Of a stretch of DNA of 64,000 bases, positions 2,169-21,583 are shown one piece after another (position 1 is the stretch's first letter; every line of letters starts with the position of its first letter). The position numbers and the translations under genes were made by a program. The notes under the pieces were generated by a model. It was not told the origin of the DNA, searched no databases, and worked only from the letters and a program-made list of their open reading frames with translations. This stretch comes from an uncultured Pseudomonadales bacterium (lineage in GTDB: Bacteria > Patescibacteriota > Microgenomatia > UBA1400 > PJMF01), in the NCBI GenBank assembly GCA_964437755.1, contig CAYTIA010000003.1, positions 7,641-71,640 on the forward strand, given 5' to 3'.

Positions 2169-2177
2169 AAACTTTAA

Positions 2178-3317: not shown

Positions 3318-4443
3318 TGCTGTTGATTTTTTTTAACAATAACAACTCTATCTTTTTCTTAAACTCTTCTTTAGAAAATTGTTGTGACTGCTTAATAATT
3401 TTATCTTTCTTCCACTTAATTGATTCAAAAACTTGTAGCCGAGAATACAAAGATTTTTCATCATAATTGTCAAAAAATAATCCAGTCACTCCATCTATAA
3501 CTGACTCTCTCACTCCTCCTTGATTAAACGCTAATACCGGAACTCCAAAGCTCATTGCTTCTACCGGAACTAACCCAAAATCTTCTTGCTGAGAACAATA
3601 AATTAAACCTCTTGCATTTTTATAAATTCTTTCCACTTGATCATCTTCAAGCCATCCATTGAAGTGGACTGTTTCCCCGGCAATTTTTTTAAGATCATTC
3701 TCTAAGTATCCTTTTCCAATAACTTCCAGTTTTATATTATATTTTGAACACACTTTTATAACCAATTCTGGGCCTTTCTGTTTTACCAATCTTGAGTGAA
3801 ACACATAATACCCCTCCCCATTATTTAGATTTTTTGTTTTTTTCGCTGCATAAATATTTGCTGGAGGATATATCACTACCGAGTCTCTATGATAAATATT
3901 GCACACCAATCCCTGAATAAACTTAGAGTCAGAAACTAAAACCGATGGTTTTTGAGCTGAGTATTGATCAATTTTCCTTAAAAATAGTTTAAAAGGAAAA
4001 AATAAAATGTTAATCGGAAATCGATTAACGCACCCCACCTCATTTTTTAAACCGTAAAGATATCTTGGAACGGTATATAAATATGCCATATGAAGTTGGT
4101 GGGGATGACTAGACACGATTTTAGAGTTATATGAATGACTTGAAGAAATAATTAGGTCATAATGTTTCAAATCTAAAAATAGAAAAAACAACCATGAAAA
4201 AAGTTTTGCAATTGAGAACAAAGAATTTAGTTTTGACACGCTCTGGATTTTTGTAAAAATTGAACTTTTTTTTATATATGGAATAAATCTTGATAACTCA
4301 CTTTTTTTAATATCAACAAAAAAGGTATATAAATCAGCCTGAGGGAATAATTCTAAAAATACTTCCAGAGTTCTTTCTGCTCCACCATAATCAAGTAATA
4401 TATCGTGAATAATAGCAACTTTATAATTTTTTATATTTACCAT
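3301..4443 (-). CDS. Glycosyltransferase family 4
   Basis: N-term 'KVAIIHDILLDYGGAERTLE' and C-term 'CSQQEDFGLVPVEAMSFGVPVLAF..GGVRESV' are typical GT4 motifs. Confidence 0.7.
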   Translation of the reverse strand: MVNIKNYKVAIIHDILLDYGGAERTLEVFLELFPQADLYTFFVDIKKSELSRFIPYIKKSSIFTKIQSVSKLNSLFSIAKLFSWLFFLFLDLKHYDLIISSSHSYNSKIVSSHPHQLHMAYLYTVPRYLYGLKNEVGCVNRFPINILFFPFKLFLRKIDQYSAQKPSVLVSDSKFIQGLVCNIYHRDSVVIYPPANIYAAKKTKNLNNGEGYYVFHSRLVKQKGPELVIKVCSKYNIKLEVIGKGYLENDLKKIAGETVHFNGWLEDDQVERIYKNARGLIYCSQQEDFGLVPVEAMSFGVPVLAFNQGGVRESVIDGVTGLFFDNYDEKSLYSRLQVFESIKWKKDKIIKQSQQFSKEEFKKKIELLLLKKINSNEQDN

Positions 4444-5426
4444 ATATACAAACCATGATAAGTACGAAAAGCGTGCCGATTAAGCACATCCTCAAAGGAA
4501 GGGGTTAGATCATATCGACTCAAAGTGTTATTTCGATACTTGAGTATAGTTTTTATATTTTTAATCGTTAATAAAATGACTGAAAAATAAAGTTTTGGAC
4601 CATAATTTATAGTGCTAAAAAAGATTGTCCAAAGTTGAACTAAAATAATTTTTCCAATATTTTTTAAAATAGTCCCTATTGGCCAAGTTAAAAGTATTGT
4701 CCAAATAACATTTTTATATGTATTAAACATTGAGAAGTAGCTTTTTTTTCCACTAGTTGTTGATCCAAAGTGGAAAGCTTTCATGTTTTTTTCTTTTTTT
4801 ATAGAAACGCCAACCATTAGTGCCCTAATACAAAGCTCAACATCTTCTAAATAATAATCATATAAAGGATTAAAAATGTAACCATAAGTTTGAATAATTC
4901 TTTTCAGGGAGCCAATTGTGGCAACCAAGCAAGAAGCAGAGGCTAAAGTTGTTTTGTCTTCTAAATTTGTAGAGTTTTTAGCATAGCCTGAAGAAAAGTA
5001 TTGAACTCCAAACGAATCAGTTGCCGAACCATTTGAATTCAAGATATGTGGAGAAATAAATATTTGCTCATCAAGATTATAACTTGATAAAAAAGAGAAA
5101 AAATTATCTGCTACACTAGCATCATCATTTATAAAAAGAACAGCTCCAATTTTTCTATATTCATTACTCGATAAAACTATATTCAAAACACTATTATTCA
5201 AAACTGAAAATTTATTCATTTCTGAACTCAACCTCATTAGTTTAATCTTGTTTTTATTTAAATAAATTTCAATCTCATTTGGAACATTATTATTTGAGGT
5301 TACAACAATAATTTGATGTGAAAGACTAGATCTTTTTATAGAATGGTTTAAACTTTCAATACACATCGACAGTTTTTCAAAAATATCTTCTGTGCACGAA
5401 CTTGGTACAATACATACTATATCCAT
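4437..5426 (-). CDS. Glycosyltransferase family 2-like (GT-A)
   Basis: N-terminal 'MDIVCIVPS...' and a 'FINDDASV' DxD-like region. Weaker than the GT4 calls. Confidence 0.45.
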   Translation of the reverse strand: MDIVCIVPSSCTEDIFEKLSMCIESLNHSIKRSSLSHQIIVVTSNNNVPNEIEIYLNKNKIKLMRLSSEMNKFSVLNNSVLNIVLSSNEYRKIGAVLFINDDASVADNFFSFLSSYNLDEQIFISPHILNSNGSATDSFGVQYFSSGYAKNSTNLEDKTTLASASCLVATIGSLKRIIQTYGYIFNPLYDYYLEDVELCIRALMVGVSIKKEKNMKAFHFGSTTSGKKSYFSMFNTYKNVIWTILLTWPIGTILKNIGKIILVQLWTIFFSTINYGPKLYFSVILLTIKNIKTILKYRNNTLSRYDLTPSFEDVLNRHAFRTYHGLYIW

Positions 5427-6578
5427 ATGACTACCATTATAATTGCGGAGGAAACAAACTGTGGCGGAGAATCAATTGCTACTCAGTATTTTGTCAAGGA
5501 ACTAAAAAAAAAGTTTTTCATCTCTACATTTCCGTTAGAGGGTATCTTAAAAACTAATTTCTTTGATTTTTTCCTCTGGCATATTCAAACATTTTTTTAT
5601 TCACTCAAAAAAACTATTAGTTTATCTAGGAGGAATCCTGATAAAATAATTTTATACTCCACAAGCTATTTGCCTGGATTAAGTGCAATTATTCTCAATA
5701 AATTTAAAATTTTGAATCTAAAAACCTGCTTCCATTATCATGGCAATAGAATCCCTGATTACCCCCAAACAAACTTTGGACTTATTAAGAGAGGTAGTCA
5801 GTTATTTAAATACAAGTTTGTTAAAACCCTACACCAATATTTAGTTAATAACTCAGATTTATTAATTTTTACTAGCGAATCATCAAAAAAAACCTTTTTT
5901 AATAATTTCAGCAAATCTTTATTAAATAACAGCATTATTGTCCCTAATGGAGTTAATGTTAATAAATTTACACCTTGTACAGATCATAAAAAGAAAATAT
6001 TAAAAAAAGAATTCGAAATTAATTCTAAACAAGTAGTTTCTTTAGTCGGCTCATTAAATAGTAGAAAAAATCTTCTGATTTTCCTTAACTCCCTCAAGTT
6101 TCTTAAAAATCAAGACACCACATACATAATAGCTTTTCCAAAACCAAAAAATGAGTTTGAAAATGTATATTTACAAAAGGTAAATAAATATTTATCAGAA
6201 AACTTAATCAAAAAAACACAAATACGATTATTTCAAGATTATCCACAAATTGAACACATCTACCAAGTAAGCAATTGCAGCGTCATCATCTCTTCAAGAG
6301 AAGAATTCCCTCTCTGTTTATTGGAGTCATTGGCATGTGGAACTCCTGTTATTACCTCTACTCAAGGTTTAGCTAGAAATCTAGTTCAAAAAGAGATATC
6401 AAAAAAACTCATAGTTCATCACCTCAGCTCAGTTAATCTCGCTAAAAAAATAAATACCTTTTTTATGATGAAATCCCCAGAACTCAATAGCATTATCGAT
6501 AAATCCATCAAAGTATCTAACAAATTTACTTGGGAGAAATCTGCCAAACTACTGATAAAAGAGCTTAGCTTAATTTAA
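5427..6578 (+). CDS. Glycosyltransferase family 4
   Basis: 'SREEFPLCLLESLACGTPVITS' GT4 C-terminal motif. The start codon abuts the divergent gene start (CATATG at 5424-5429). Confidence 0.65.
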   Translation: MTTIIIAEETNCGGESIATQYFVKELKKKFFISTFPLEGILKTNFFDFFLWHIQTFFYSLKKTISLSRRNPDKIILYSTSYLPGLSAIILNKFKILNLKTCFHYHGNRIPDYPQTNFGLIKRGSQLFKYKFVKTLHQYLVNNSDLLIFTSESSKKTFFNNFSKSLLNNSIIVPNGVNVNKFTPCTDHKKKILKKEFEINSKQVVSLVGSLNSRKNLLIFLNSLKFLKNQDTTYIIAFPKPKNEFENVYLQKVNKYLSENLIKKTQIRLFQDYPQIEHIYQVSNCSVIISSREEFPLCLLESLACGTPVITSTQGLARNLVQKEISKKLIVHHLSSVNLAKKINTFFMMKSPELNSIIDKSIKVSNKFTWEKSAKLLIKELSLI

Positions 6579-7379
6579 TTCAAAATCCGTAACCATCGGA
6601 AAAACGCTAACCTTTTTAAAATTTAGCGGCAAACTTGTTCCAATGGTTAATGGCTCTTTATCAAAAATAAAAAGGGTATTATTAACCTCTTTAGCACTAA
6701 TCACTAAAGTTAAAAACAAGTCTTTATATACTGGACTATATCTAAGAAGAGGGTCTCCTTGATTATTTGTTGTTACTATTTCAGCAGGCAAAACTTCTTT
6801 TTTAACTATTCGCACTAACTCATTCCCTTTTGAATCTAGTATTACGTCATCAATATTAATCGCTTGTGCCAAAGAAGGCTCAACATGTCTTCCTATGGCA
6901 GCTACTTTTACTTTTTTGATAATTACTTGGTTATCATTTTCATAATTTGGATATTGTACTATATGTCCATCAAAAGTAATGTTGTCAAAGTTAAATCTCA
7001 TCGGAGCTCCATAGGCCAACTTTTTTCCCCTGGCAATAAATGTTTCAGTTCTTTTATTGTGAGTTGCCTTAAGTCTTAGATCTAGATAAACTATACTTTC
7101 TTTTGGATTAACTTTAATAGATTCAACTGCAATAATTTCAGCAATAACTTTTCCAATAGAGTCTCTTTCTACCTCTCCAACCCTAAATTGATTGGCATAC
7201 CATAAATCTGGATTACTTTTTGCGTAAAGTACCTCTTGATCAGTTACTCTCACTCTTACAATTACATCCATTTCCTCTCTTTTAAAAAAGAAGTATAGAA
7301 ATATTATAGAAAAAAGGAAAATAAAACCTAAAAAAATATCAATTTTATTAATTTTTTTTAAGTTAAGGGTTTTTTTCAT
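6570..7379 (-). CDS. Hypothetical N-terminally membrane-anchored protein
   Basis: ORF with one N-terminal TM helix. The likely true start is the internal 'MKKTLNL' at 7379, which avoids overlap with the upstream gene. No recognizable motif. Confidence 0.4.
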   Translation of the reverse strand: MKKTLNLKKINKIDIFLGFIFLFSIIFLYFFFKREEMDVIVRVRVTDQEVLYAKSNPDLWYANQFRVGEVERDSIGKVIAEIIAVESIKVNPKESIVYLDLRLKATHNKRTETFIARGKKLAYGAPMRFNFDNITFDGHIVQYPNYENDNQVIIKKVKVAAIGRHVEPSLAQAINIDDVILDSKGNELVRIVKKEVLPAEIVTTNNQGDPLLRYSPVYKDLFLTLVISAKEVNNTLFIFDKEPLTIGTSLPLNFKKVSVFPMVTDFELN

Positions 7380-8853
7380 ATTTTTTTCTTTCTTCAACAT
7401 AAATTATACCAGCTCCAAGCACTAATCCTAAAAATGGTGCCTCAATCACACCCACATGAGGTAAAAATAAATAATATCCTCCAAAAAGAAATAATCCTGA
7501 TACAAATCTATACAAAAATATTTTTTGATAATGGGTTAAATTTTTTCTTGAAATAAGAAACATTTTTCTTAAAATGTATACAAATGGAAAAAGCAGAAAC
7601 AATAGTCCAAACCAACCAACTTCTAAAACTAACTGTAAATATGCCAAATGAACTGCTGCCGGAAACACTGCCATCAGCCCCAGAGGTTTAAAACTATGCA
7701 AAGTATATTCATTTGTTCCAACACCATATCCAAAAAATGGATTTTGAATAAAAGCTTCCCAACCTTCCTTAATCATTTTAACTCTAATTGGAACGCCAGC
7801 TCCATCATAAAAAGTATTTAGAGATAATAATACTCTCGGGATAATAACAAACGATAAGAAGAAAACAATAACATATAAGATAATCCTTTGTCTGTATCCA
7901 ACATAATTTTTCCAAATTTTTTTACACTGTACTGGAAAAAATAAAACAAAAACCACTAACCCTAATAGAAGCATCAACCAAACAGACCTAGATTGAGTTA
8001 ATACTACAGTTATTAATCCTAAGATAATTAATAAATAATCATCTTTTTGATTTGATTTTAATAAATATGGCAAATAACTCATAACCATAAAAGCGACAAT
8101 CAATGCCAGCTGATTATGAAAACCCATCGTTCCCTGAACTCGAAAGTAGGCATTATTTTCATCTAACCCGGTATAGAAAGCTCCTTGATTCCACTGTTCA
8201 AACGGAAAACCAACCATAGATTTTTTAAAAAACTGCCAAACACTAATAACAAACTGTATTACTATTGAGGCTCGAATTATTTGTTTGAAATATCTATCTG
8301 AAAATTTTTGTTGATAAAAAATGACTAGACCCAATGCAGCAACAAATAACTGACAGTATTGTAAAAGCCACACAACTGATAACTCAATAAATGGTGAGTT
8401 ACTATTAGAAATGAAAAAAGTGGTGAAAAAAAATAAAATTGAGGGCATAATTACATAACTAAATCTTCTAAAAAAAATAATAAAGTTCGCTAAGATCTTT
8501 TCTTTAAAAATTACTAAAAAAAACAGTAACCAATAAATATTGGCTATATGGACTCCATAGCCAAGCCAATAACCAGTGTTATACTCTGGCAGTAGTAATT
8601 CATAGCCTCTAATAACTTCTATCGAGGAGTATCTGTTTGGAATTAAAAACTGAGAAAGAAAAAAGGATATTGAAAAAAGAGTGGTTAACAAATTTTTGGT
8701 ACAATAATAAACCGCAACGAACAGCGCAAAAGATGCTACAAGAAAAAATTTAAAAGATCCTATTTTAAAAAGAGCTATAAATATGGTAAACAGAAATATG
8801 ATCAGAGCAAGGCCATTATTTTTCCAATTTTTTTTAAAATGATAAAAAATCAT
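7363..8853 (-). CDS. O-antigen ligase / Wzy-like polysaccharide polymerase family membrane protein
   Basis: About 12 TM segments and a 'GTMGFHNQLALIVAF' HN-type motif resembling Wzy_C. The first ATG is at 8853; the track starts at a TTG at 8871. Confidence 0.5.
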   Translation of the reverse strand: MIFYHFKKNWKNNGLALIIFLFTIFIALFKIGSFKFFLVASFALFVAVYYCTKNLLTTLFSISFFLSQFLIPNRYSSIEVIRGYELLLPEYNTGYWLGYGVHIANIYWLLFFLVIFKEKILANFIIFFRRFSYVIMPSILFFFTTFFISNSNSPFIELSVVWLLQYCQLFVAALGLVIFYQQKFSDRYFKQIIRASIVIQFVISVWQFFKKSMVGFPFEQWNQGAFYTGLDENNAYFRVQGTMGFHNQLALIVAFMVMSYLPYLLKSNQKDDYLLIILGLITVVLTQSRSVWLMLLLGLVVFVLFFPVQCKKIWKNYVGYRQRIILYVIVFFLSFVIIPRVLLSLNTFYDGAGVPIRVKMIKEGWEAFIQNPFFGYGVGTNEYTLHSFKPLGLMAVFPAAVHLAYLQLVLEVGWFGLLFLLFPFVYILRKMFLISRKNLTHYQKIFLYRFVSGLFLFGGYYLFLPHVGVIEAPFLGLVLGAGIIYVEERKKYEKNP

Positions 8854-9993
8854 AGGATAATTTTTCTCCAAACTTTACCGTGGAACTGGACAGCTGATTT
8901 TCAAAAACAAACTGCTAGCATTTTAAGTAAAAATAATCTCATTATTGTATATTCTGTCAATAATCAACAGTCAGCAATAAGATTCATTATATCCTTATTT
9001 AAAAAAATATATCTCTTAAATCACTCTCAAAATAATATTATCTTTCATAATCAAGTTATTTTTTTTCCGAATAAAAGATTTACTTTATTAAAAAAACTTA
9101 ACTCTTGGATAAACTATCTATACTTGTTTACGGTATATAAACCCAGTTTTTTGTGGACTTCTGATCCAAGGACTTATATACCCTATAAACTTATCAATCT
9201 ATTTAGACAGAATAAACTACTATATGACTGTAGCGATTATCACTGGCATCCAAACCCTAGAGAAGATCAATTAATCAAGACTAATGAAAAAAAATTAATT
9301 GAAGAATCAAATTTTTTTATTGTTAACTCATACTCATTACATGAACTTCATAAAAAAATAAAAACTCCAGATGCAGTAGTACCCCAAGGATTTGCTGTAG
9401 ATAATTTTTCTAAAGAAAAATTATCTACCCTTGTTAGTCAAATAAATAAAACTCCTACTCTCGGTTTTATTGGAGGCATCAATTATCGCTTGGATATATC
9501 TCTTATTAGCAATTTAATTAATAATAATCCTAACTGGAACTTTGTTTTTGTTGGTCCAAAACAACTCAATCAAATACCTGGAGATCAGAAAGTTTTTCAA
9601 CAACTAGACAAATTATTTGAAAGAAGCAATGTCAAGTATATTGATAGTATCCCAAGAGAAGAAATTGGCAATTATATCCAATCATTTGACATAGGATTTA
9701 TTCCTTACGACATATCTTATAGATTCAACCTATATTGCTATCCAATGAAGTTATTTGAGTATTTTTACTTTGGGAAACCAGTTATTAGTTCTCCAATTAA
9801 GGAGTTAATGCTTCCAAAATTTAAAGACCTTGTCTATATAGCAAATGATGTTTTAGAGTGGGAAAAACATATTAAAATATTAATATCTGCTCAATGGGGA
9901 CAGGACAAAAAATCTAAACAAAAAAAGATGGCTGTTGACAATAGTTGGGAAAGAAAAGTGAAGGCTATCTGTGATATAGTTAGCCCCAATTAA
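8839..9993 (+). CDS. Glycosyltransferase (GT1/GT4-like C-terminal domain)
   Basis: 'PMKLFEYFYFGKPVISS' resembles the GT-B C-terminal EX7E-region motif. Its start overlaps the divergent gene by 15 nt. Confidence 0.45.
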   Translation: MIKNHRIIFLQTLPWNWTADFQKQTASILSKNNLIIVYSVNNQQSAIRFIISLFKKIYLLNHSQNNIIFHNQVIFFPNKRFTLLKKLNSWINYLYLFTVYKPSFLWTSDPRTYIPYKLINLFRQNKLLYDCSDYHWHPNPREDQLIKTNEKKLIEESNFFIVNSYSLHELHKKIKTPDAVVPQGFAVDNFSKEKLSTLVSQINKTPTLGFIGGINYRLDISLISNLINNNPNWNFVFVGPKQLNQIPGDQKVFQQLDKLFERSNVKYIDSIPREEIGNYIQSFDIGFIPYDISYRFNLYCYPMKLFEYFYFGKPVISSPIKELMLPKFKDLVYIANDVLEWEKHIKILISAQWGQDKKSKQKKMAVDNSWERKVKAICDIVSPN

Positions 9994-10019
9994 AAACAGG
10001 TAGAAACGATAAAAATTGC

Positions 10020-11012
10020 ATGTCAAAAGTAAAAATATTTGTTGTAATACCCACCATTAGAGACGTGGAGATGTTAAAGAAGTGGAAGAATCAAATTAAA
10101 GATTGCCATGTCATTATTTGTGAAGACCATCATGAAAAAACAGTAAAAGTTCCAGAAGTTGGCAGAAAGACTTACCATTATTCTTGGAAAGAGATTGATG
10201 AGGACCTTGGAGAAAATAGTTGGATTATTCCCAGAAGAGTTTCTGGTATTCGTAATTACGGATTTCTAAAAGCATTCCAAATGAAAGCTGACATCATAAT
10301 TACTCTAGACGATGACTGTTACCCCGTTAAAAACCATAATTTAATCCAACAACACCTGCAAAATTTAAGCATCTCAGTTCCCAAGAAATGGGTCAACACA
10401 TATCCTGATTCTCGCCATCTATATACACGAGGTATGCCCTATCTTAATAGAACAGAACAGCAGGTGATGATAAGCCATGGCTTATGGACAAACGTTCTAG
10501 ATTTTGATGGAGCAACTCACCTCCAAAAACTCCAGTTTCAGGCTGAATTTGCTCAACATTTCTTACAAATTATTCCCCATGGAGCTTATTACCCAATGTG
10601 CTCGATGAATTTGGCATTTGATGCAAAGATTACTCCAATAATGTATTTTCCATTAATGGGAGAAGATTCTCTAGGTAACAAGTGGGGCTATGATCGTTTT
10701 GATGATATCTGGGCCGGCATCTTTTCAAAAAAGATTATGGATCACCTAGGTTATGCAGTAATCAATGGCTCTCCTTTTGTTAAACACAACAAAGCTTCCG
10801 ACCCGTTTAAAAATTTACAGAAAGAAGCTCTTGGGATAGAAGCAAACGAGGAACTGTGGAAATTAGTGGATCAAGTACACCTTACCTCTTCTTCTCCAGT
10901 TCAGTGTTACTTAGAACTTGCAAATAAAATTAAATGGCCAAAAGAAAAGTATTTTTCAAAAGATTTAAAAAAGGCAATGATTATTTGGGCTTCTCTCTTC
11001 CCAAAAACATAA
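10020..11012 (+). CDS. Reversibly glycosylated polypeptide (RGP) / UDP-L-arabinopyranose mutase-family protein (PF03214-like)
   Basis: Recalled plant RGP/UAM motifs are matched along the whole length: 'VIPTIR', 'ITLDDDCYP', 'SHGLWTNVLDFDGATH', 'PMCSMNLAFD', 'RFDDIWAGIF', 'HNKASDPFKNLQKE'. Confidence 0.65.
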   Translation: MSKVKIFVVIPTIRDVEMLKKWKNQIKDCHVIICEDHHEKTVKVPEVGRKTYHYSWKEIDEDLGENSWIIPRRVSGIRNYGFLKAFQMKADIIITLDDDCYPVKNHNLIQQHLQNLSISVPKKWVNTYPDSRHLYTRGMPYLNRTEQQVMISHGLWTNVLDFDGATHLQKLQFQAEFAQHFLQIIPHGAYYPMCSMNLAFDAKITPIMYFPLMGEDSLGNKWGYDRFDDIWAGIFSKKIMDHLGYAVINGSPFVKHNKASDPFKNLQKEALGIEANEELWKLVDQVHLTSSSPVQCYLELANKIKWPKEKYFSKDLKKAMIIWASLFPKT

Positions 11013-11067
11013 AGTCTAAATTTAAAATACAAAATATTACCAATCAGGGTTACTTTATTTAGAAAAA

Positions 11068-12207
11068 GTGAAGTCAATATCTAAACAAATTTCTGTATCA
11101 CTTCTATTAAAAAGTGAGGTTGGACAGATTAGCGAGAATGAGCTTGCGGGTACCGAACAAGTTTTTCTAAAAGATATCTCTGCACTAAATAAATTTTGCA
11201 ACATAAAAGCTTACGCTAGATTTTGTAATAACAACCCGAGAGTTAGAACTTTGTTCTTTTCAAAAAGAGTGCTAAATACTCGTTTCTCGTTTATTCATGA
11301 ACTTTTCTACCACATTCAGTTTGTATTACTTAACCAAAAGAGCGATATATTAATAGGTTATTCTACACCGTTACTAGCTCTCTTCTCGAACAAAAATACC
11401 ATAGTTTTTCTTCATAATAATCATCCTTTTCCCCTATACAAAAAGTTTAAGCAAAAATATCAGAAAGCCACTTATGTTTTTTGCTCAAAAGCATTAAAAA
11501 ATGAGGTAATCAAAAAAAACAAACTTAACTTGCCAAAAACTTTTGTCTTGCACAATTCAATTGACACTAACATTTTTAATTGTAATCATAAGAAGGCTAT
11601 CGATTCGGAAAAAACAAGTAAACTTAAAATTCTCTTTTGCAGCGCATGGACTCAAGAAAAAGGGTTAAATGTTCTCTTGAAAGCAATTCTCCTTCTTCCA
11701 AAAGAATTGAGGCAAAAAATCTCACTAACTATCTCAAGTAGTCCAAAATTATGGTATTCAGATAATCCAGAGTTAAGAAGAACATATACTGAAGAATCCT
11801 TAGCATTATTAAGAAAAATAAAAGGCGTTCATCTATTAAATGGTGTTGATCATGCAGAACTATCTAAACTCTATTTTCAAAATGAGTTCACAGTTTTTCC
11901 CTCTATCTGGGATGAGCCTTTTGGCTTAGTATGTCTTGAATCGATTGCTTGTGGAACAAAAGTAATAAGCTTCTCGAACCCATCTACTACAGAAATTTTA
12001 GATAAAAACAATTCCATAATTGTTTTAGGGAAAAAAGCCTCATCATTAAAAAATTGTTTAGTCAAATTAATTAAGAGTCATAAAATTAAAAAAGGAAATA
12101 AAAGAAGTCTTTTAACCAAAAAAAATTCACTTATGATCGATAGTAGAAGGATGAATAAATTCAAAGAAATTATTAATCAGGTAGTTATAGAAGATGTATC
12201 GAGATGA
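11068..12207 (+). CDS. Glycosyltransferase family 4
   Basis: 'FPSIWDEPFGLVCLESIACGTKVISF' GT4 motif. GTG start; translationally coupled (ATGA overlap) to the next gene. Confidence 0.65.
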   Translation: MKSISKQISVSLLLKSEVGQISENELAGTEQVFLKDISALNKFCNIKAYARFCNNNPRVRTLFFSKRVLNTRFSFIHELFYHIQFVLLNQKSDILIGYSTPLLALFSNKNTIVFLHNNHPFPLYKKFKQKYQKATYVFCSKALKNEVIKKNKLNLPKTFVLHNSIDTNIFNCNHKKAIDSEKTSKLKILFCSAWTQEKGLNVLLKAILLLPKELRQKISLTISSSPKLWYSDNPELRRTYTEESLALLRKIKGVHLLNGVDHAELSKLYFQNEFTVFPSIWDEPFGLVCLESIACGTKVISFSNPSTTEILDKNNSIIVLGKKASSLKNCLVKLIKSHKIKKGNKRSLLTKKNSLMIDSRRMNKFKEIINQVVIEDVSR

Positions 12208-13199
12208 TAAAAAATAATAACAATTACCAAACCAACTCCACTTCTAAAACAGTTAAGGGTTTTAATAAAATTAATTTTATATCAATTGGCATCTGTACTA
12301 AAAATAACTACAAATTACTTAATAAGTGTTTAAAATCAATTAATAATCTGGTCATACCCAACAATCTTAAGGTTGAGATAGTCGTGATTGATCAAAGTGA
12401 CAATCAATTAAAACTTGACTCTTCAAAATTCAAAAGGTTAGTTTTCAAACAGTTCTTTTCTAAACACGCTGGTATTTCATTTGCGAGAAATGAGCTATTT
12501 AAGTTCGCAAGTGGAGACATACTATTTATCACCGATGATGACACTATCGTTAGCAATAACTGGATTACGTCTACCATCGATTTATTTTCTCAAAACAATA
12601 GGGTAGGAATAATAGGTGGAAAAATAAAACAATTAAACAAAACACCAAATTCTTTCTCAAACACTCTAAAAGAGTTGGATTACAACAAAAATTTTTGGCC
12701 ATATGCTTTACTTGATTTAGGAGAAAAAGTTAAAACTATCGACAAAGACACTCACTACCCCTGTTTTGCTAACATGGCGATAAGGAAAAAGGTTTATAAA
12801 AATGTTAAGATTGACACCGACTTTGGAAATCAAGAAAGTTTTTTTAAAATCTTTGGAGGAGAAGACCCCGCATTTGTCGAAGAAGTAAAAAAAACTTACT
12901 CCCTTCTTTATAACCCCAACATGCTTGTTTGGCATTATATAAAACCTCACAAATTCTCAAAAAAATATTTCATTTGGAGATATTTTGAATGGGGAAAAGA
13001 AAGAGCTTTGTTGAAAACAAAATACAACATTCCCTTCAACATTACCCTCAATCAATTATTTAAGAATATTATCAATTTAATTAGGAATATAAAAAACGGC
13101 AGAACTTATCTTAACGAACTATTATATATAGTACCTGCACTGAGTTTTTCATCAACCATTTTTTTCTTAAAAGTATCCAATATTCCAAAAAAGTCATAA
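12204..13199 (+). CDS. Glycosyltransferase family 2
   Basis: 'ISIGICTKNNYKLLNKCLKSI' GT2 N-terminus and a 'FITDDDTIV' DxD motif. Confidence 0.6.
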   Translation: MIKNNNNYQTNSTSKTVKGFNKINFISIGICTKNNYKLLNKCLKSINNLVIPNNLKVEIVVIDQSDNQLKLDSSKFKRLVFKQFFSKHAGISFARNELFKFASGDILFITDDDTIVSNNWITSTIDLFSQNNRVGIIGGKIKQLNKTPNSFSNTLKELDYNKNFWPYALLDLGEKVKTIDKDTHYPCFANMAIRKKVYKNVKIDTDFGNQESFFKIFGGEDPAFVEEVKKTYSLLYNPNMLVWHYIKPHKFSKKYFIWRYFEWGKERALLKTKYNIPFNITLNQLFKNIINLIRNIKNGRTYLNELLYIVPALSFSSTIFFLKVSNIPKKS

Positions 13200-13205
13200 T
13201 TTTTT

Positions 13206-14336
13206 ATGAAAAAAAGTATTTTATTTATTTCCGACAGATATCATATTGGAGGTGTTTCATCTTCAATTAAAACCTACATCTCAGCTCTTGATGAAAATTA
13301 CAAAGTTATTCTTATAGCTCGAGAAGATAATTTAACTAACTCTCAAGATTTTTTTAAAAACTGTACTCCTGTTACTGTAAGTGGAAAGGTTAGATTCTCA
13401 TTAATTGGTAGATTGCTTGACTCTTTTCAGTATCTTAAAGAGCTTCATAAGATTTACATGAAATATCAACCAGAAGTGGTACATTTTTCAACTACTTGGT
13501 CCTCTCTCTACTCTTTTCTTCATCCATTAACATGGAGAAAAAAACGAGTTATTACTTTCCACGGAGCCTTTGATTTAGAAGAAATAAGCAGCAATCAATC
13601 CAGTTCAAAGATAGATTTAAAACTCAAAAAAACACTTCAAAAATTCTCTCTGCAAAGCTCTCACAAGATAATAGTTTTTAGTCAATTCGCTAAAAAATTA
13701 GTTCTAACTCACTTCGGAGATAAGCTTAATGAAAAGATTTTATTGATTCCTGGCTCTACTCAGACTAAACAAATAAAACATCTTAAAAATAAAGAGCTTA
13801 CACTTGTTAATTTTGGGAGGGCTGAGCCACGAAAAGGCCTGGATCTTATTTTTGTGGCAGTTAGTGAGCTATTAAAGAGAGGAATAAAAACAAAATTATA
13901 TCTTGCCTCCCCAGTAGAGTTTTACTATTACACTGATTTGTTGAAGGTTTATCAAGAAAACAACCTTTTTTTGTCAGTTCATCTAACACATTTGGTTTCA
14001 AGTGAGCAAAAAGAACATTTGTTACAGATGGCAGATTTATTTATTATGCCATCAGTTGAACTTGAAACATTTGGATTAACAGTTATTGAAAGTCTTGCGC
14101 ACGGAGTTCCAGTAATTGGCAGTGATTGTGGAGCAATCCCAGAAATATTAAGCAAGGTTAATAAACAATTAATATTTTCGAAGAAATCACCGGAGTCATT
14201 AGTTGAAAAAATTACTTGGTATAGTCAACTTAGCAATGAGGAGAAGCAAAAAATTAGAATAAAATGCATTCGGACTGTAGAACAGTATTATTCTGTTGAA
14301 AAGAATAAGCAGAAAATAATGAGTATTTATGGATAA
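13206..14336 (+). CDS. Glycosyltransferase family 4 (tandem duplicate copy 1)
   Basis: 'MPSVELETFGLTVIESLAHGVPVIGSDCGAIPEI' GT4 motif. It is 100% identical to the next gene from residue about 21 onward. Confidence 0.7.
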   Translation: MKKSILFISDRYHIGGVSSSIKTYISALDENYKVILIAREDNLTNSQDFFKNCTPVTVSGKVRFSLIGRLLDSFQYLKELHKIYMKYQPEVVHFSTTWSSLYSFLHPLTWRKKRVITFHGAFDLEEISSNQSSSKIDLKLKKTLQKFSLQSSHKIIVFSQFAKKLVLTHFGDKLNEKILLIPGSTQTKQIKHLKNKELTLVNFGRAEPRKGLDLIFVAVSELLKRGIKTKLYLASPVEFYYYTDLLKVYQENNLFLSVHLTHLVSSEQKEHLLQMADLFIMPSVELETFGLTVIESLAHGVPVIGSDCGAIPEILSKVNKQLIFSKKSPESLVEKITWYSQLSNEEKQKIRIKCIRTVEQYYSVEKNKQKIMSIYG

Positions 14337-14375
14337 AATTAGGGATTCTTAAAAAAGTTACTCTAGAAAAATTTT

Positions 14376-15509
14376 ATGAAAATAAAAACAATATTATTCA
14401 CCATTGATAATTATCACATCGGAGGTATCACCTCCTTCATTAAAACCTACATCTCAGCTCTTGATGAAAATTACAAAGTTATTCTTATAGCTCGAGAAGA
14501 TAATTTAACTAACTCTCAAGATTTTTTTAAAAACTGTACTCCTGTTACTGTAAGTGGAAAGGTTAGATTCTCATTAATTGGTAGATTGCTTGACTCTTTT
14601 CAGTATCTTAAAGAGCTTCATAAGATTTACATGAAATATCAACCAGAAGTGGTACATTTTTCAACTACTTGGTCCTCTCTCTACTCTTTTCTTCATCCAT
14701 TAACATGGAGAAAAAAACGAGTTATTACTTTCCACGGAGCCTTTGATTTAGAAGAAATAAGCAGCAATCAATCCAGTTCAAAGATAGATTTAAAACTCAA
14801 AAAAACACTTCAAAAATTCTCTCTGCAAAGCTCTCACAAGATAATAGTTTTTAGTCAATTCGCTAAAAAATTAGTTCTAACTCACTTCGGAGATAAGCTT
14901 AATGAAAAGATTTTATTGATTCCTGGCTCTACTCAGACTAAACAAATAAAACATCTTAAAAATAAAGAGCTTACACTTGTTAATTTTGGGAGGGCTGAGC
15001 CACGAAAAGGCCTGGATCTTATTTTTGTGGCAGTTAGTGAGCTATTAAAGAGAGGAATAAAAACAAAATTATATCTTGCCTCCCCAGTAGAGTTTTACTA
15101 TTACACTGATTTGTTGAAGGTTTATCAAGAAAACAACCTTTTTTTGTCAGTTCATCTAACACATTTGGTTTCAAGTGAGCAAAAAGAACATTTGTTACAG
15201 ATGGCAGATTTATTTATTATGCCATCAGTTGAACTTGAAACATTTGGATTAACAGTTATTGAAAGTCTTGCGCACGGAGTTCCAGTAATTGGCAGTGATT
15301 GTGGAGCAATCCCAGAAATATTAAGCAAGGTTAATAAACAATTAATATTTTCGAAGAAATCACCGGAGTCATTAGTTGAAAAAATTACTTGGTATAGTCA
15401 ACTTAGCAATGAGGAGAAGCAAAAAATTAGAATAAAATGCATTCGGACTGTAGAACAGTATTATTCTGTTGAAAAGAATAAGCAGAAAATAATGAGTATT
15501 TATGGATAG
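14376..15509 (+). CDS. Glycosyltransferase family 4 (tandem duplicate copy 2)
   Basis: Identical protein to copy 1 except the first about 21 aa. The DNA is identical over about 1070 bp (13266-14335 vs 14439-15508). Confidence 0.7.
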   Translation: MKIKTILFTIDNYHIGGITSFIKTYISALDENYKVILIAREDNLTNSQDFFKNCTPVTVSGKVRFSLIGRLLDSFQYLKELHKIYMKYQPEVVHFSTTWSSLYSFLHPLTWRKKRVITFHGAFDLEEISSNQSSSKIDLKLKKTLQKFSLQSSHKIIVFSQFAKKLVLTHFGDKLNEKILLIPGSTQTKQIKHLKNKELTLVNFGRAEPRKGLDLIFVAVSELLKRGIKTKLYLASPVEFYYYTDLLKVYQENNLFLSVHLTHLVSSEQKEHLLQMADLFIMPSVELETFGLTVIESLAHGVPVIGSDCGAIPEILSKVNKQLIFSKKSPESLVEKITWYSQLSNEEKQKIRIKCIRTVEQYYSVEKNKQKIMSIYG

Positions 15510-15520
15510 ATTACAAAACA

Positions 15521-16399
15521 ATGAAGAAAATCATAAATAAATCCTTTCTATACAATTTATTTAAAAATACTAATCTTAAATATAAATATTTGTTGGCAGT
15601 AACCAAAATACTAAAAACAAAATCTATAATAGTAAGAAAAAAATCTAATGTCGTCGTCTCTTGCGTAACATCCAAAAAAGATTATGTTTTTCTAATTCTT
15701 GCTATAAAGAGTTTTTTTTCACACATAAATACAAATTTTTCATTAATAATTTTTGATGATGGATCATTATCAGAGAAACACGTAAAAACTCTTAAAAAAC
15801 ATTTAATAAACTCCATAATTATTAATAAAAAGCAATATGTTAAAAAAGTTAAAAAAATTTATGGCAAAAATCACGTATTTTTTCAAAAAAAAGACATTCC
15901 TTATGTAATGAAAAAATTAGGTCCTGTTTTATTTACCTCTTGTAAGAAGATAATATTTTTAGATAGTGATGTTTTATTTTTTAAAAATGATTCAATAATT
16001 GATAACTGGATTCAGAATAAATACGATGCATTTTTTATTCAAGATCATCAGGATGCATATTTTCTCTCTCAAATTGAATCAAGGAAAATTTTTGGGGTTA
16101 ATTTATTACCCAAGCTAAATTCTGGTTTCTTAGGCATTAACAGAAAAGATATTAATCTTACTATCTTTAAAAAACTTTTAGAAACATATGAACAATTAAG
16201 TGTATATAGACCGTGGCAATTTCAAACTTTTTTCGCAATAGCACTATCAAGAAAAAAATGTTTAGTATTGCCAAGAAATTACTTAATTAGCGAAAAAAAA
16301 AGTATTAATTCCGCAACAGTTTGTTGTCATTATGTAAGAACCATTAGACACAAAATGTATAATGATGCTCAAATTGTTTTAAATAATCTTAATTTATAA
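15521..16399 (+). CDS. Putative nucleotide-diphospho-sugar transferase (GT-A fold, DxD)
   Basis: 'LIIFDDGS' and 'IIFLDSDVLFF' DxD-type motifs. The family assignment (GT8/GT77-like) is uncertain. Confidence 0.4.
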   Translation: MKKIINKSFLYNLFKNTNLKYKYLLAVTKILKTKSIIVRKKSNVVVSCVTSKKDYVFLILAIKSFFSHINTNFSLIIFDDGSLSEKHVKTLKKHLINSIIINKKQYVKKVKKIYGKNHVFFQKKDIPYVMKKLGPVLFTSCKKIIFLDSDVLFFKNDSIIDNWIQNKYDAFFIQDHQDAYFLSQIESRKIFGVNLLPKLNSGFLGINRKDINLTIFKKLLETYEQLSVYRPWQFQTFFAIALSRKKCLVLPRNYLISEKKSINSATVCCHYVRTIRHKMYNDAQIVLNNLNL

Positions 16400-16419
16400 A
16401 ACCATATACTAAATAAGTA

Positions 16420-17163
16420 CTAAAAATCGGCAAAACTTTTTTCATACTCTGAAATTAAAATTTTATCTCCACTTTTTTTTAATTTTCCGTTTTCTATCCA
16501 TACTATTCTGTTACAGCTACTTCTTAAATAATCCAACCAGTGAGATGCAAGAATAACAGTTTTCCCAGAATTAAAAAATTGCTTTATTTTTTCTGATATT
16601 TTTTTATTAAAATCTTCGTCTCCAGCCACCACACCTTCGTCAAGTAATAAAATATCTGGATCGCTGTGAATAGCGATGCTAAAACCTAACCTCAAATTCA
16701 TTCCAGCAGAATAAGTATAAAGTGGGCTATCAATAAACTTGCCAATATCCGCAAACTCAACTATCTGATTAAATTTACTTTTTATTTCCTTTTTAGACAT
16801 TCCAATTAGTAAACCATTTAGAAAAATGTTCTCTTCTCCTGTTAATTCGGGATGAAATCCGGCTGACACATCTATTAATGAAACAACTTTTCCATTGACT
16901 TGTACTTTTCCTGCTGTTGGTGCGGTAATTCCTGCAATTAACTTTAATATTGTTGTCTTGCCAGCCCCATTGGCTCCAATAATACCAACCTTTTCTCCTT
17001 TATTGATTTCAAGGTTAAAATTATTAATGGCGATAAATTTTTCTCGATAACCTCTTTTTATAATATTCTCCACAAAAGTGGGCTTTTCATGATGAAGAAT
17101 GTACTCTTTTTTTACATTTTTTAGAGATATTGCTACAGCTTTTTTTATTGTTTTTTTACTCAT
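16420..17163 (-). CDS. ABC transporter ATP-binding protein, polysaccharide/teichoic-acid export type (Wzt/TagH-like)
   Basis: Walker A 'GIIGANGAGKTT', an ABC signature region and a Walker B 'ILLLDE'. Adjacent to an ABC-2 permease. Confidence 0.8.
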   Translation of the reverse strand: MSKKTIKKAVAISLKNVKKEYILHHEKPTFVENIIKRGYREKFIAINNFNLEINKGEKVGIIGANGAGKTTILKLIAGITAPTAGKVQVNGKVVSLIDVSAGFHPELTGEENIFLNGLLIGMSKKEIKSKFNQIVEFADIGKFIDSPLYTYSAGMNLRLGFSIAIHSDPDILLLDEGVVAGDEDFNKKISEKIKQFFNSGKTVILASHWLDYLRSSCNRIVWIENGKLKKSGDKILISEYEKSFADF

Positions 17164-17192
17164 AAAGATTTCTTAAATTCTTTTGAAGATTC

Positions 17193-17993: not shown

Positions 17994-18205
17994 GGGTGTG
18001 AGTGATAATAAAACAAAGAGGTGTTAATGGCAATTTGCAGATTTCTTCACCGTACTCTTTCAAAAATTAAAATTGCCATTTGACACACAAACATTTTTTA
18101 GAGTATTCTATATATCAGGACAGGTTGTGTTCGCTTGTTGTTATTTGTTCAAAAACTGTATACTAAAATAAAATATATATATTTCGCCAAATCAATCTAA
18201 CATCA

Positions 18206-21545: not shown

Positions 21546-21583
21546 CTCTTTAAATTACATAGTTATATTTAATCCGGAAACTT

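Follow-up and report, generated by a model that had tools for sequence, protein, structure and literature searches.

The window, by which is meant the whole 64-kb stretch of DNA that was analysed, opens within a gene for a large membrane protein (3-2168, minus strand, cut by the window start) that clusters (c8) with O-antigen-ligase/IctB-like proteins; a representative of this cluster matches IctB weakly in NCBIfam, and its members adjoin RGP in other lineages, being RGP-adjacent in 8 loci. It is followed by two GT4 genes (2178-3317 and 3301-4443) and a gene for an unassigned 329-aa protein (4437-5426), all on the minus strand, and by a GT4 gene on the plus strand (5427-6578), and the gene order from 2178 to 6578 is shared with a related locus (L001). 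Genes for a DUF4330 protein (6570-7400, minus; DUF4330 44 bits) and for a Wzy_C-domain membrane protein of the O-antigen ligase/polymerase family (7363-8871, minus; Wzy_C 60.8 bits) come next. The latter is divergent from an operon that begins with a gene for a TuaH-like GT4-type (GT-B) glycosyltransferase (8839-9993, plus; Glycos_transf_1 30.8 bits, and 115.9 bits to the NCBIfam TuaH model, which is below the cut-off). This gene ends 26 nt upstream of a plus-strand open reading frame (10020-11012) that runs from ATG to stop, encodes 330 aa and is predicted to specify an NDP-sugar pyranose-furanose mutase of the GT75/RGP family.

The mutase gene is followed after 55 nt by a GT4 gene (11068-12207; Glycos_transf_1 67.8 bits), a GT2 gene that overlaps it by 4 nt (12204-13199; Glycos_transf_2 56.9 bits), a tandem pair of GT4 copies with 98% amino acid and 99.3% nucleotide identity (13206-14336, matching Glycos_transf_1 with 84.2 bits and also Glyco_transf_4, and 14376-15509) and a gene for an unassigned 292-aa protein (15521-16399), all on the plus strand. 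From 8839 to 16399 the genes lie on the same strand with short spacers; terminator-like sites were absent from the intergenic gaps of this stretch, and a promoter/terminator scan found promoter-like sites to be fewer than in shuffles. Two minus-strand genes lie beyond it, one for a 247-aa Wzt/TagH-like ABC ATPase consisting of the nucleotide-binding domain only (16420-17163; ABC_tran 82.6 bits) and one for a Wzm/TagG-like ABC-2 permease (17193-17993; ABC2_membrane 60 bits). Seven GT4-type genes, one GT2 gene, Wzy_C and Wzm/Wzt make this an envelope-glycan cluster with ABC-type glycan export genes; its host is an ultra-small bacterium of the Patescibacteria (CPR), probably of Microgenomates type. 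The Pfam matches bear out the earlier note, which had described a surface-glycan locus with GT4/GT2 genes and a Wzm/Wzt exporter.

The mutase had also been said to sit next to a DxD GT-A protein, namely the 292-aa protein of 15521-16399 (GC 0.233). The DxD motif is present (IIFLDSDVLF, together with an IFDDGS motif), but the gene is the fifth downstream of the mutase, and a GT-A fold was supported neither by HMM searches nor by hhalign nor by modelling. The protein has no match in Pfam or NCBIfam, hhalign gave a probability of 16% against a GT2 family, over the DxD segment only, and of 0.4% against RGP, the PDB profile search returned glycogenin-2 at E 0.46, and a single-sequence AlphaFold model had a pLDDT of 36.9. 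The protein may nevertheless be a GT-A transferase.

The product of 10020-11012 is confirmed as a GT75/RGP-family protein. It matches PF03214 (RGP, CAZy GT75) with 183.1 bits (E 1.1e-53) against a gathering cut-off of 23.8 bits, and the match is full-length, protein residues 5-327 being aligned to positions 5-337 of the 342-position profile; NCBIfam, which lacks a model of this protein, gave noise matches only. The motifs from which the family had first been recognised were all found, namely VIPTIR (residues 9-14), DDDC (97-100), SHGLWTNVLDFDGAT (152-166), PMCSMNLAFD (192-201), DDIWAG (228-233) and HNKASDPFKNLQKE (256-269), the only correction being that the two-letter gap written into the SHGLW motif is really four residues long. 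Run against the PDB, a profile built from 76 homologs matched nothing but UAM (E 1.6e-53) and MtdL (E 5e-42), and the best single-sequence PDB match was rice UAM2 (8cid, E 2.6e-23). Identity is 36% to plant class-1 UAM and 26% to MtdL. The AlphaFold model (pLDDT 95.7, pTM 0.94) was matched by Foldseek to 8cid with a TM score of 0.85 and to MtdL with one of ~0.72, and the next-best GT-A matches were well separated from these (E 1e-6, TM below 0.4). The model shows the same parts as MtdL and OsUAM2: a Rossmann-like region of GT-A type at the N-terminus, a core specific to the family and a helical C-terminus. Profile match, key residues and predicted fold thus all agree with the RGP/UAM assignment of the earlier note.

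Studies of characterised members allow the active site to be read residue by residue. Mutagenesis has shown that D111, R159, D195, D260, H287 and R257 of MtdL and R158, D182, D246 and H273 of the plant enzymes are essential (PMC9937993). The key residues of the mutase are P11, D36, R78, D97-D98-D99-C100, R137, D161, S195-M196-N197, R226, D229, H256, K258 and S260; of these D99, R137, D161, D229, H256 and R226 correspond one-to-one to the six MtdL residues, and R137, D161, D229, H256 and R226 to plant R158, D182, D246, H273 and R243. All residues on which MtdL or AtRGP2 depends by mutagenesis are kept. D99, R137, D161, D229 and H256 never vary across the alignment of 76 homologs, and conservation is at least 90% for R226, D97, D98, R78, D36 and P11. 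R137, which lies within the motif YTRGMPY, is the predicted glycosylated nucleophile, so that the catalytic arginine singled out for checking in the earlier note is both present and invariant; D229 is the predicted base, and D99 and H256 are the predicted Mn ligands. Since D99, H256, R137, D229, D161 and R226 are all kept, the mutase resembles the active class-1 enzymes and not the inactive class-2 proteins, and judged by its residues it is apparently a catalytically competent GT75 mutase.

The resemblance to the plant class-1 UAM/RGP proteins (OsUAM1, AtRGP1-3) goes further. They share the GT75/PF03214 family and the predicted fold at ~36% identity, are soluble and of about 330-360 aa, and agree not only in the catalytic residues and the DDD-C motif but also in M196-N197, K258, S260, S75 (plant S91) and P11 (plant P27). 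There are differences too: the mutase has V74 and H37/H38 where the plants have D90 and D54, S195 in place of G216, and DFD as its third DxD motif (DLD in the family consensus) where the plants have DYD. It also belongs to a separate prokaryotic clade and lies in a bacterial envelope-glycan operon that lacks nearby genes for UDP-Xyl/UDP-Ara supply.

Phylogenetic analysis was by neighbour joining with 100 bootstraps, by which deep nodes are unresolved. Plant class-2 sequences were gathered with the 8cid sequence as bait, which returned class-2 proteins only, and class-1 sequences came from a second search with an AtRGP1 bait, the tree drawing solely on database entries that this search retrieved. 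Eukaryotic RGPs (class 1, class 2 and eukaryote-type fusions) formed one clade (bootstrap 99), and the Patescibacteria group of the mutase formed a separate one (bootstrap 90); the phylogeny proposed in the earlier note therefore sets the mutase within a prokaryotic clade, outside the eukaryotic RGPs. This separate clade, the bacterial flanking genes and the 104 syntenic or related prokaryotic loci led us to reject both contamination and a recent horizontal acquisition from plants.

The family comprises 2046 clusters at 90% identity, and close relatives of the mutase were found in 48 species-level genomes, mostly Patescibacteria. The statement that the family is uncommon in bacteria thus holds for cultured bacteria, but not for Patescibacteria metagenomes, where it is abundant. 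Among 104 non-redundant related neighbourhoods the TuaH-like glycosyltransferase was the most conserved neighbour of RGP, being immediately adjacent in 19 of them and adjoining RGP in 13 of the 21 loci of the subclade with at least 62% identity in which the upstream gene is visible. A block of the form DUF4330 < Wzy_C < GT > RGP recurs, as does the pair of Wzt-like ATPase and Wzm-like permease, the permease being RGP-adjacent in 10 loci. By gene association the TuaH-like enzyme (8839-9993) is a candidate furanosyltransferase.

The 64-kb window contains no nucleotide-sugar synthesis gene: Ugd, UXS, 4-epimerase and the GME and Gmd/Fcl supply genes were all absent from it, so the question of the substrate rests on relatives 52-70% identical to the mutase, whose loci were viewed within +/-10 kb of each RGP match. 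The only precursor genes that were repeatedly RGP-adjacent across the 104 loci were those for GalE-type 4-epimerases, found in 5 loci in at least three arrangements. In L089 a GalE gene (TIGR01179 343 bits, cut-off 262) overlaps RGP by 8 nt, in L026 a 4-epimerase gene (221 bits to the UDP-Glc 4-epimerase 4zrm) overlaps it by 14 nt, and L095 (259 bits, 7 bp from RGP) and L101 (243 bits) carry GalE-like genes. In L057 a GalE-type gene adjoins an RGP that is 70% identical to the mutase, within a locus of the same architecture as the window. Apart from the GalE of L089 the RGP-adjacent SDRs received no confident NCBIfam assignment, and none was confidently UXS; E. coli ArnA, RmlB, GalE, Gmd and Fcl served to calibrate the motif rule used for SDRs (STSE/STDE/SSxx). 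Homologs of the flavin enzyme Glf were absent from 129 related loci, as was WbbI.

AtRGP2 makes UDP-Galf, requires S91 and tolerates the change G216S (PMC9937993). The RGP-adjacent GalE-type genes, the plant-like residues S75, M196, K258, S260 and P11, this activity of AtRGP2 and the absence of Glf from the 129 loci together lean towards UDP-galactose or UDP-arabinose. Conversion of UDP-D-Galp to UDP-D-Galf ranks first among the individual substrates, as a tentative choice that falls short of an even chance; GDP-L-Galp and UDP-L-Arap follow it about equally. The earlier suggestion of a glycan containing arabinofuranose or a related furanose is in part upheld, a furanose-containing glycan being the best reading, but arabinose specifically is not supported, given that the window lacks Ugd, UXS and 4-epimerase and that GalE-type genes are the most tightly linked across the 104 loci, with GME following more loosely.

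Were the enzyme specifically a UDP-L-arabinopyranose mutase, which seems rather unlikely, it would serve an L-Araf glycan, and its UDP-L-Arap would be made by Ugd, UDP-GlcA decarboxylase and UDP-Xyl 4-epimerase encoded elsewhere. Conversion of UDP-L-Arap to UDP-L-Araf has in its favour that the mutase is closest to the class-1 plant UAMs (36%, against 26% for MtdL), including the sugar-pocket residues S75, M196, K258 and S260, and that an RGP-adjacent 4-epimerase would suit UDP-Xyl 4-epimerase as well as GalE. A fitting set of Ugd and SDR genes does surround RGP in L036, L028/L116 and L122, where a nucleotide-sugar dehydrogenase (TIGR03026, 138 bits) occurs with an SDR whose S-R-E motif contains Glu and with a UXS/UGA-epimerase-like SDR (139 bits to human UXS1), and L028 adds a GalU/GalF-like gene. 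However, this set is confined to a subclade only 43-46% identical to the mutase, and an AsnB-like amidotransferase and TuaC/TuaH-like glycosyltransferases accompany it, so that what is made there may be the uronic acid as such. Moreover, neither Ugd nor a UXS-type SDR was found within +/-10 kb of the five GalE-coupled loci, no SDR was confidently UXS, and the mutase stands outside the eukaryotic clade.

A comparable standing, or one very slightly better, is given to GDP-L-Galp or GDP-L-Fucp as the substrate, although this too we consider unlikely. On this account a mutase like MtdL or Hyg20, fed by GDP-mannose 3,5-epimerase (GME), would supply L-galactofuranose or L-fucofuranose to the glycan. 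MtdL (Marinactinospora thermotolerans, A201A pathway; PDB 7xpr, 7yua and others) and Hyg20 (Streptomyces hygroscopicus) are GDP-L-galactose/GDP-L-fucose mutases and the only characterised bacterial GT75 enzymes (PMC9937993). With these the mutase shares, as a bacterial GT75 protein, the Mn ligands, the arginine nucleophile, the catalytic Asp residues and the beta-phosphate Arg, and some related loci show, loosely, the pairing of GME with a mutase. L009/L064 carry, in the same cluster as RGP, a clear ortholog of GME (Arabidopsis 2c59, 327 bits, E 9e-97), and GME-like genes 46-62% identical to it are present in L006, L057, L060, L038 and L082; still other loci have Fcl-like and Gmd genes. Four of the GME-bearing loci belong to the mutase's own subclade of at least 62% identity, which keeps GDP-L-Gal in play; in L057 the gene lies just past that for the large membrane protein, and the corresponding place here would be just outside the left edge of the window. 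In all, GME is found in 6 of the 104 loci and always 3.5-9 kb (4-9 genes) from RGP, never adjacent to it, whereas the GalE-type genes adjoin or overlap RGP, and the single ManC-like gene seen belongs to a different subclade from the mutase.

The nucleotide-contacting residues also speak against GDP. Of the guanine and L-sugar contacts of MtdL, the mutase has P for T13, H for N42, V for S86, S for D87, M for Q229, K for R289 and S for H292. In MtdL the changes D87S and Q229A abolish activity, T13P weakens GDP binding and S86D abolishes it (PMC9937993). At the positions of MtdL T13, N42 and S86 (the UDP-associated plant P27, D54 and D90) the mutase matches the plant residue with P11 and mismatches it with H37/H38 and V74, and these two mismatches count against a UDP-sugar. 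Proline at position 11 was discarded as a possible sign of UDP specificity: all of the prokaryotic sequences have it, GME-linked copies included, and so it does not discriminate. The mutase is also shorter than MtdL, lacks its insertions and stands in a surface-glycan context rather than an antibiotic gene cluster. Some other substrate altogether is about as probable as UDP-L-Arap.

That the protein is no mutase at all is improbable. It would then be a conventional or self-priming GT-A transferase, an Arg-autoglycosylating primer or an enzyme acting on a lipid-linked glycan. GT75 does have the GT-A fold with a DxD motif, the gene lies amid many glycosyltransferase genes, and in plants such proteins glycosylate themselves with UDP-Glc while showing no mutase turnover (PMC9937993), but the residues conserved in all 76 homologs are exactly the mutase-chemistry set, the protein has no acceptor-binding extension and no hydrophobic segment (maximum KD19 0.96), and recurrent translational coupling to a 4-epimerase suits nucleotide-sugar interconversion better than transfer. 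An inactive scaffold or regulator like the plant class-2 RGPs (OsUAM2, AtRGP5), suggested by 8cid being the best structural and single-sequence PDB match, is hardly credible, as that ranking reflects no more than what has been crystallised and the mutase has DDD in place of the DDN of rice UAM2 and its nearest relative, and keeps P11, the Mn-binding H256 and the Lys/Ser loop with K258 where class-2 proteins have A, R and D and lack that loop's Lys and Ser.

The reading preferred here, in which we have reasonable but far from full confidence, is therefore of a competent GT75 NDP-sugar pyranose-furanose mutase, its likely substrate a UDP-sugar of galacto or arabino configuration supplied by a 4-epimerase. 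From the family, fold, conserved residues and gene context we infer its activity, mechanism, substrate and furanose user. By analogy with MtdL and the plant class-1 UAMs, Mn2+ held by D99 and H256 would bind the diphosphate, and R137, deprotonated by D229, would attack C1 and expel the nucleotide, leaving an Arg-glycosyl enzyme. Ring opening, reclosure through O4 and re-attack by the nucleotide would then release the NDP-furanose, and flavin would take no part. The equilibrium should favour the pyranose, so a furanosyltransferase from a neighbouring gene presumably consumes the furanose as it forms, and the TuaH-like enzyme 26 nt upstream would be the best candidate for this role. The furanose would enter a lipid-linked envelope glycopolymer built by the seven GT4-type enzymes and the one GT2 enzyme, with the Wzm/Wzt-type ABC transporter as its exporter.

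Where surface glycans contain furanoses, the usual source is taken to be the flavoenzyme Glf, and Klebsiella D-galactan I and the mycobacterial galactan are Glf-dependent Galf glycans exported by Wzm/Wzt. Glf/UGM, for example in the glf-wbbI region of the E. coli K-12 rfb cluster, would share with the mutase the role of supplying an NDP-furanose beside glycosyltransferases and Wzm/Wzt, but the two are unrelated in sequence, fold and cofactor, GT75 relying on Mn2+ and an arginine nucleophile and Glf on reduced FAD. It is conceivable, though doubtful and a little less probable than UDP-D-Galp as the substrate here, that Patescibacteria GT75 translationally coupled to GalE is the physiological UDP-galactopyranose mutase, a metal-dependent, flavin-free and non-orthologous replacement of Glf/UGM that makes Galf for an ABC-exported envelope glycan. 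No relevant work that links GT75/RGP to Patescibacteria, or to archaeal or flavin-independent Galf synthesis, turned up in the literature searched, and a paper on the evolution of plant NSEs does not deal with UAM.

To our knowledge the biochemistry of GT75 mutases has been worked out solely for plants and two actinomycete antibiotic pathways. An apparently active GT75 enzyme as a common and conserved part of CPR envelope-glycan loci widens the prokaryotic range of a mostly "plant" family, and the enzyme could serve as an NDP-furanose biocatalyst. The surface chemistry of CPR bacteria is almost wholly unexplored and probably mediates attachment to the host, and a small soluble GT75 enzyme for which four substrates are candidates offers an entry point to it. 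If the mutase is a UDP-Galf synthase, it would represent a second, cofactor-independent route to a sugar absent from mammals, and if GT75 is the UDP-Galp mutase of Patescibacteria, the "plant" arabinose mutase would have descended from a broad prokaryotic family of furanose-making enzymes.

The open reading frame that the earlier note had placed at 10020-11012 (+) was recovered at exactly that position, beginning with ATG and encoding 330 amino acids, and its assignment to the reversibly glycosylated polypeptide (RGP)/UDP-arabinopyranose mutase (UAM) family was borne out by PF03214 (E 1.1e-53; 183.1 bits, gathering score 23.8). The match runs end to end, with residues 5-327 aligned to positions 5-337 of 342, no other Pfam family was matched by the protein, and the six family motifs given in the earlier note are all present, at residues 9-14, 97-100, 152-166, 192-201, 228-233 and 256-269. 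The only two significant sequence relatives in the PDB were the UAM 8cid (E 2.6e-23) and MtdL (7xpr, 7yua and others, labelled 'transglycosylase'; E ~2e-13), and both were also found with a profile of 76 family sequences (E 1.6e-53 and 5e-42, respectively). A model was made with AlphaFold2 from the alignment of these 76 sequences (mean pLDDT 95.7, pTM 0.94). Its nearest PDB structures by Foldseek, at E ~1e-22 to 1e-24, are rice UAM2 8cid (TM 0.85) and, after it, six MtdL entries (TM 0.70-0.73); generic GT-A transferases follow (E >=1e-6, TM <0.4), so that no other GT-A family was a better match. Both in sequence and in its modelled fold the protein has all the defining features of GT75. No hydrophobic segment was found in it, which makes it a soluble cytoplasmic enzyme.

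Work on MtdL identified D111 of the DDD motif and H287 as Mn2+ ligands, R159, the arginine that is autoglycosylated in plant RGPs, as the proposed nucleophile and D260 as the proposed base; activity needs D195, D87, D109, Q229 and R257, and guanine is contacted by T13, N42 and S86, whose plant counterparts are P, D and D (PMC9937993). Residues were mapped onto the mutase from the MtdL and 8cid sequences printed by HMMER together with class-1 (active) plant and algal UAMs from the database; an AtRGP1 sequence was the bait for the latter and only the database proteins returned entered the mapping. The mutase keeps D97-D98-D99-C100, R137, D161, R226, D229, H256, K258 and S260 and also has P11, I13, D36, S75, R78, M196 and N197. 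It agrees with active class-1 plant UAMs at 15 of the 18 mapped positions, the mismatches being V74 (plant D90), H37/H38 (plant D54) and S195 (plant G216), and lacks the GDP/L-sugar contact residues of MtdL. The catalytic arginine, R137, is invariant across the 76-sequence alignment, as are D99, D161, D229 and H256. In inactive class-2 proteins the positions of P11, H256 and K258 are occupied by A, R and D, and rice UAM2 has DDN in place of DDD. All proteins returned by a search seeded with 8cid bear the names 'probable inactive UAM2' or 'UAM5', in keeping with 8cid being a class-2 protein. Because the catalytic arginine and the other active-site residues are kept, the protein looks like an active mutase and not like a class-2 scaffold, a class to which it does not belong.

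In a neighbour-joining tree (165 sequences, 313 columns, Kimura distances, 100 bootstraps) both plant classes, 1 and 2, grouped with long eukaryote-type fusion proteins in a single clade (99% support); the mutase fell outside it, in a separate clade with its Microgenomates relatives (90% support). No deeper node was supported, and the tree thus does not show where the eukaryotic clade arose. The mutase is 36% identical to a class-1 plant UAM and 26% to MtdL; it is 'plant-like' in its residues, yet did not arise by recent transfer from plants. On the RGP model the eukaryote-type fusion proteins reach 394-460 bits, and their partner domains are GT47, GT2_4 or DUF3405. P0197, P0203, P0213 and P0236, in which the RGP is joined to GT2_4, GT47/exostosin or DUF3405, look like mutase-glycosyltransferase fusions and could reveal the cognate furanosyltransferase families of protists or algae. 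Other unusual homologs were P0196 (499 aa), with an HNH endonuclease domain fused N-terminal to the RGP, and P0168 (661 aa), in which a LAGLIDADG-domain intein sits directly in front of the Cys conserved in the active-site motif PMC(G/S)MN (extein junctions '...QYFPL|C...' and '...VVKN|CGMNLAF').

The family had been described as uncommon in bacteria. The GT75 entries in CAZy as of 2019 numbered 9 from bacteria and 43 from archaea (PMC6861824), and the sole characterised bacterial members as of 2023 were MtdL and Hyg20 (PMC9937993). A word-index search found 2046 RGP clusters at 90% identity, the best 120 of which are 54-82% identical to the mutase, with named members among those 120 from Woesebacteria, Pacebacteria, Roizmanbacteria, Gottesmanbacteria or 'Patescibacteria group'. 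An exhaustive search of 50%-identity representatives gave 1377 hits at E<=1e-3, of which 353 had E<=1e-30. In GTDB species genomes, a scan by peptide pattern yielded 48 RGP loci, mostly from Patescibacteria, including Daviesbacteria, Chisholmbacteria and Saccharimonadales, with further loci from a Planctomycetaceae MAG (five copies) and from Methylacidiphilales and Dehalococcoidia MAGs (one each); a metagenome scan added 80 loci. The description is right only for cultured bacteria. In the Planctomycetaceae MAG (CAWGNG01) the copies lie on five contigs (L040-L043, L048), are 36-40% identical to the mutase and are all flanked by the same small conserved ORFs (c24, c41/c55, c25), surroundings that look like a repeated cassette or mobile unit and not a glycan locus.

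The Patescibacteria-type locus is also found in many TPA assemblies under the labels 'Pseudomonadales' or 'Gammaproteobacteria'; for this reason these labels were treated as unreliable, and those of many MAGs as doubtful. Beyond the glycan cluster the window carries bacterial housekeeping genes (MEP pathway, YidC, DnaN, class-I aminoacyl-tRNA synthetase, ATP-dependent DNA ligase, MacB/HlyD) at 27-40% GC, and to judge from the names on homologs the host is a CPR bacterium, probably of Microgenomates type. The ligase (36376-38160, -) has three domains (DNA_ligase_A_N, _M and _C), and no NAD-dependent LigA was seen within the window. The sole tRNA in the window is a tRNA-Ile with anticodon UAU at 21472-21546 (+) (ARAGORN; Rfam tRNA 72.3 bits); AUA is read in most bacteria by a CAU tRNA with a lysidine modification, and a genomic UAU anticodon is thus unusual.

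Placement of the gene in a glycan locus with a Wzm/Wzt exporter was confirmed. Seven same-strand (+) genes spaced by -4 to 55 nt run from 8839 to 16399, in the order TuaH-like GT4-type glycosyltransferase, mutase, GT4, GT2, two GT4s and an unassigned protein. Genes for Wzy_C-domain and DUF4330 proteins diverge from this run, with further GT4 genes more to the left, and Wzt- and Wzm-like ABC transporter genes converge on its right end. The gene order in the locus L001 (83% RGP identity) is identical throughout. GC is 0.297 in the cluster (1-18000) against 0.344 in 18001-64000; the mutase gene is the cluster maximum (0.363) and the gene for the unassigned DxD protein (15521-16399) the minimum (0.233). 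The adjacent GT4 genes at 13206-14336 and 14376-15509 (+) are 98% identical in protein and 99.3% over 1098 nt, and are a very recent tandem duplication, a product of gene conversion or an assembly artefact; a pure artefact is less likely because L001 also has two copies (both c20).

ORFs were called in every fetched locus and grouped or classified by BLAST, with 10 kb to either side seen, and de-duplication at 97% RGP identity left 104 groups. The most frequent immediate neighbour of the RGP gene was the TuaH-like glycosyltransferase (19/104 loci), which in the subclade of at least 62% identity adjoins it in 13 of the 21 loci with the upstream gene visible, often at 2-26 nt. Others were a Bac_transf priming phosphoglycosyltransferase (11 loci), Wzm (10), GT2 (9), a large O-antigen-ligase/IctB-like membrane protein (8) and a WecG/TagA-type glycosyltransferase (4). 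From these recurrent neighbours the RGP gene is judged a stable component of envelope-glycan loci, and by analogy their TuaH/TuaC/TagA/TagGH-like flavour suggests a Gram-positive-style wall glycopolymer. In two Roizmanbacteria-type loci (L014, L030) the intact gene is followed by a repeated series of extra RGP C-terminal fragments (~100-140 aa), between which lie copies of an ATPase-like gene of ~450 aa (c31); this suggests repeated insertion or duplication at the 3' end of the RGP gene. Four other loci (L015, L016, L023, L005) have a distinct accessory set after the RGP (c15, c16, c22), comprising class-I methyltransferase-like, PLP-dependent decarboxylase (histidine/tyrosine decarboxylase-like, 134-141 bits) and QueC-like genes.

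No nucleotide-sugar synthesis genes were found within the 64-kb window, so the substrate was inferred from relatives (43-70% identity), with E. coli K-12 Ugd, Glf, WbbI, RmlABCD, GalF, ManBC, Gmd, Fcl, ArnA and GalE/K/T as references. The 129 related loci contained no Glf or WbbI homologs. The sole precursor enzymes recurring directly beside the RGP were GalE-type 4-epimerases, in five loci. In L089 there is an 8-nt overlap between GalE and the RGP stop, and GalE reaches 343 bits on TIGR01179, the curated GalE equivalog model (cut-off 262.3); those of L095 (7-bp gap) and L101 (beside the RGP) score 259 and 243 bits, that of L026, with a 14-nt overlap at the RGP start, matches UDP-glucose 4-epimerase 4zrm with 221 bits (E 1.6e-64), and that of L057 lies 104 bp downstream of an RGP 70% identical to the mutase, in a locus with the window's own architecture (DUF4330 < Wzy_C < GT > RGP ... 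Wzt < Wzm). Since the epimerase is upstream in one locus and downstream in the remaining ones, and mutual identity is only 28-50%, there are at least three arrangements. UDP-D-Galp was tentatively put first as substrate, tight operonic coupling being weighed above looser co-location.

GDP-L-Galp/Fucp is a somewhat unlikely substrate. GDP-mannose 3,5-epimerase (GME), which is also best known from plants and whose product, GDP-L-galactose, is the physiological substrate of MtdL, occurs in 6 loci (L009, L006, L038, L057, L060, L082), four of them within the mutase's own subclade, always 3.5-9 kb and 4-9 genes from the RGP. The L009 copy (2034-2984, -) matches Arabidopsis GME with 327 bits (E 9e-97), and that of L057 lies just past the large membrane-protein gene, a site equivalent to one just outside the window's left edge. 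Such orthologs would imply L-galactose-derived sugars in the glycans of these patescibacterial clusters.

UDP-L-Arap is unlikely. In a subclade 43-46% identical to the mutase (L036, L028/L116, L122) the RGP is embedded among Ugd/SDR-type genes. One encodes a nucleotide-sugar dehydrogenase (TIGR03026, 138 bits) and two encode SDRs, of which the first has a Glu-containing S-R-E motif and the second is about equally like UDP-GlcA 4-epimerase (148 bits), 4zrm (146) and human UXS1 (139); L028 also has GalE-like and GalU/GalF-like genes. These could form a route from UDP-Glc through UDP-GlcA and UDP-Xyl to UDP-Arap, or could simply make amidated uronic acids, for which an AsnB-like amidotransferase is present. 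Any other substrate is just as unlikely as UDP-L-Arap.

As read from the alignment, active-site residues do not decide the sugar. Every sequence of the prokaryotic set, GME-linked copies included, has Pro at the T13 position; the N42-equivalent position is variable, and V74 differs from both the plant Asp and the MtdL Ser. The sugar-pocket positions S75, M196, K258 and S260 are plant-like; MtdL D87S and Q229A, at the positions of S75 and M196, are dead, and AtRGP2, which converts UDP-Galp to UDP-Galf, needs S91 and retains ~46% activity as G216S (PMC9937993). At these two positions the mutase (S75, S195) has the states of AtRGP2 S91 and G216S. Specificity may differ between RGP subclades.

By analogy with MtdL and plant UAM, a Mn2+-bound NDP-pyranose would sit over R137, D229 would deprotonate the guanidinium and R137 would attack C1, expelling NDP; the Arg-linked sugar would then open its ring and reclose via O4, and NDP would return to release the NDP-furanose. 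The pyranose is favoured at equilibrium in these mutases, so the flux should be drawn forward by a tightly co-expressed furanosyltransferase, for which the upstream TuaH-like glycosyltransferase is, by association, the best candidate. Assembly of the polymer would take place in the cytoplasm on a lipid carrier, followed by export through Wzm/Wzt. Glf-dependent, ABC-exported galactans would be formally analogous, with an unrelated metal-dependent mutase here in place of Glf. A search of the accessible literature found no paper linking GT75 to Patescibacteria, nor one on a physiological prokaryotic GT75 UDP-Galp mutase, and the protein is on these grounds a new, uncharacterised GT75 member in a new biological setting, in which a GT75 mutase might, doubtfully, replace Glf in CPR bacteria.
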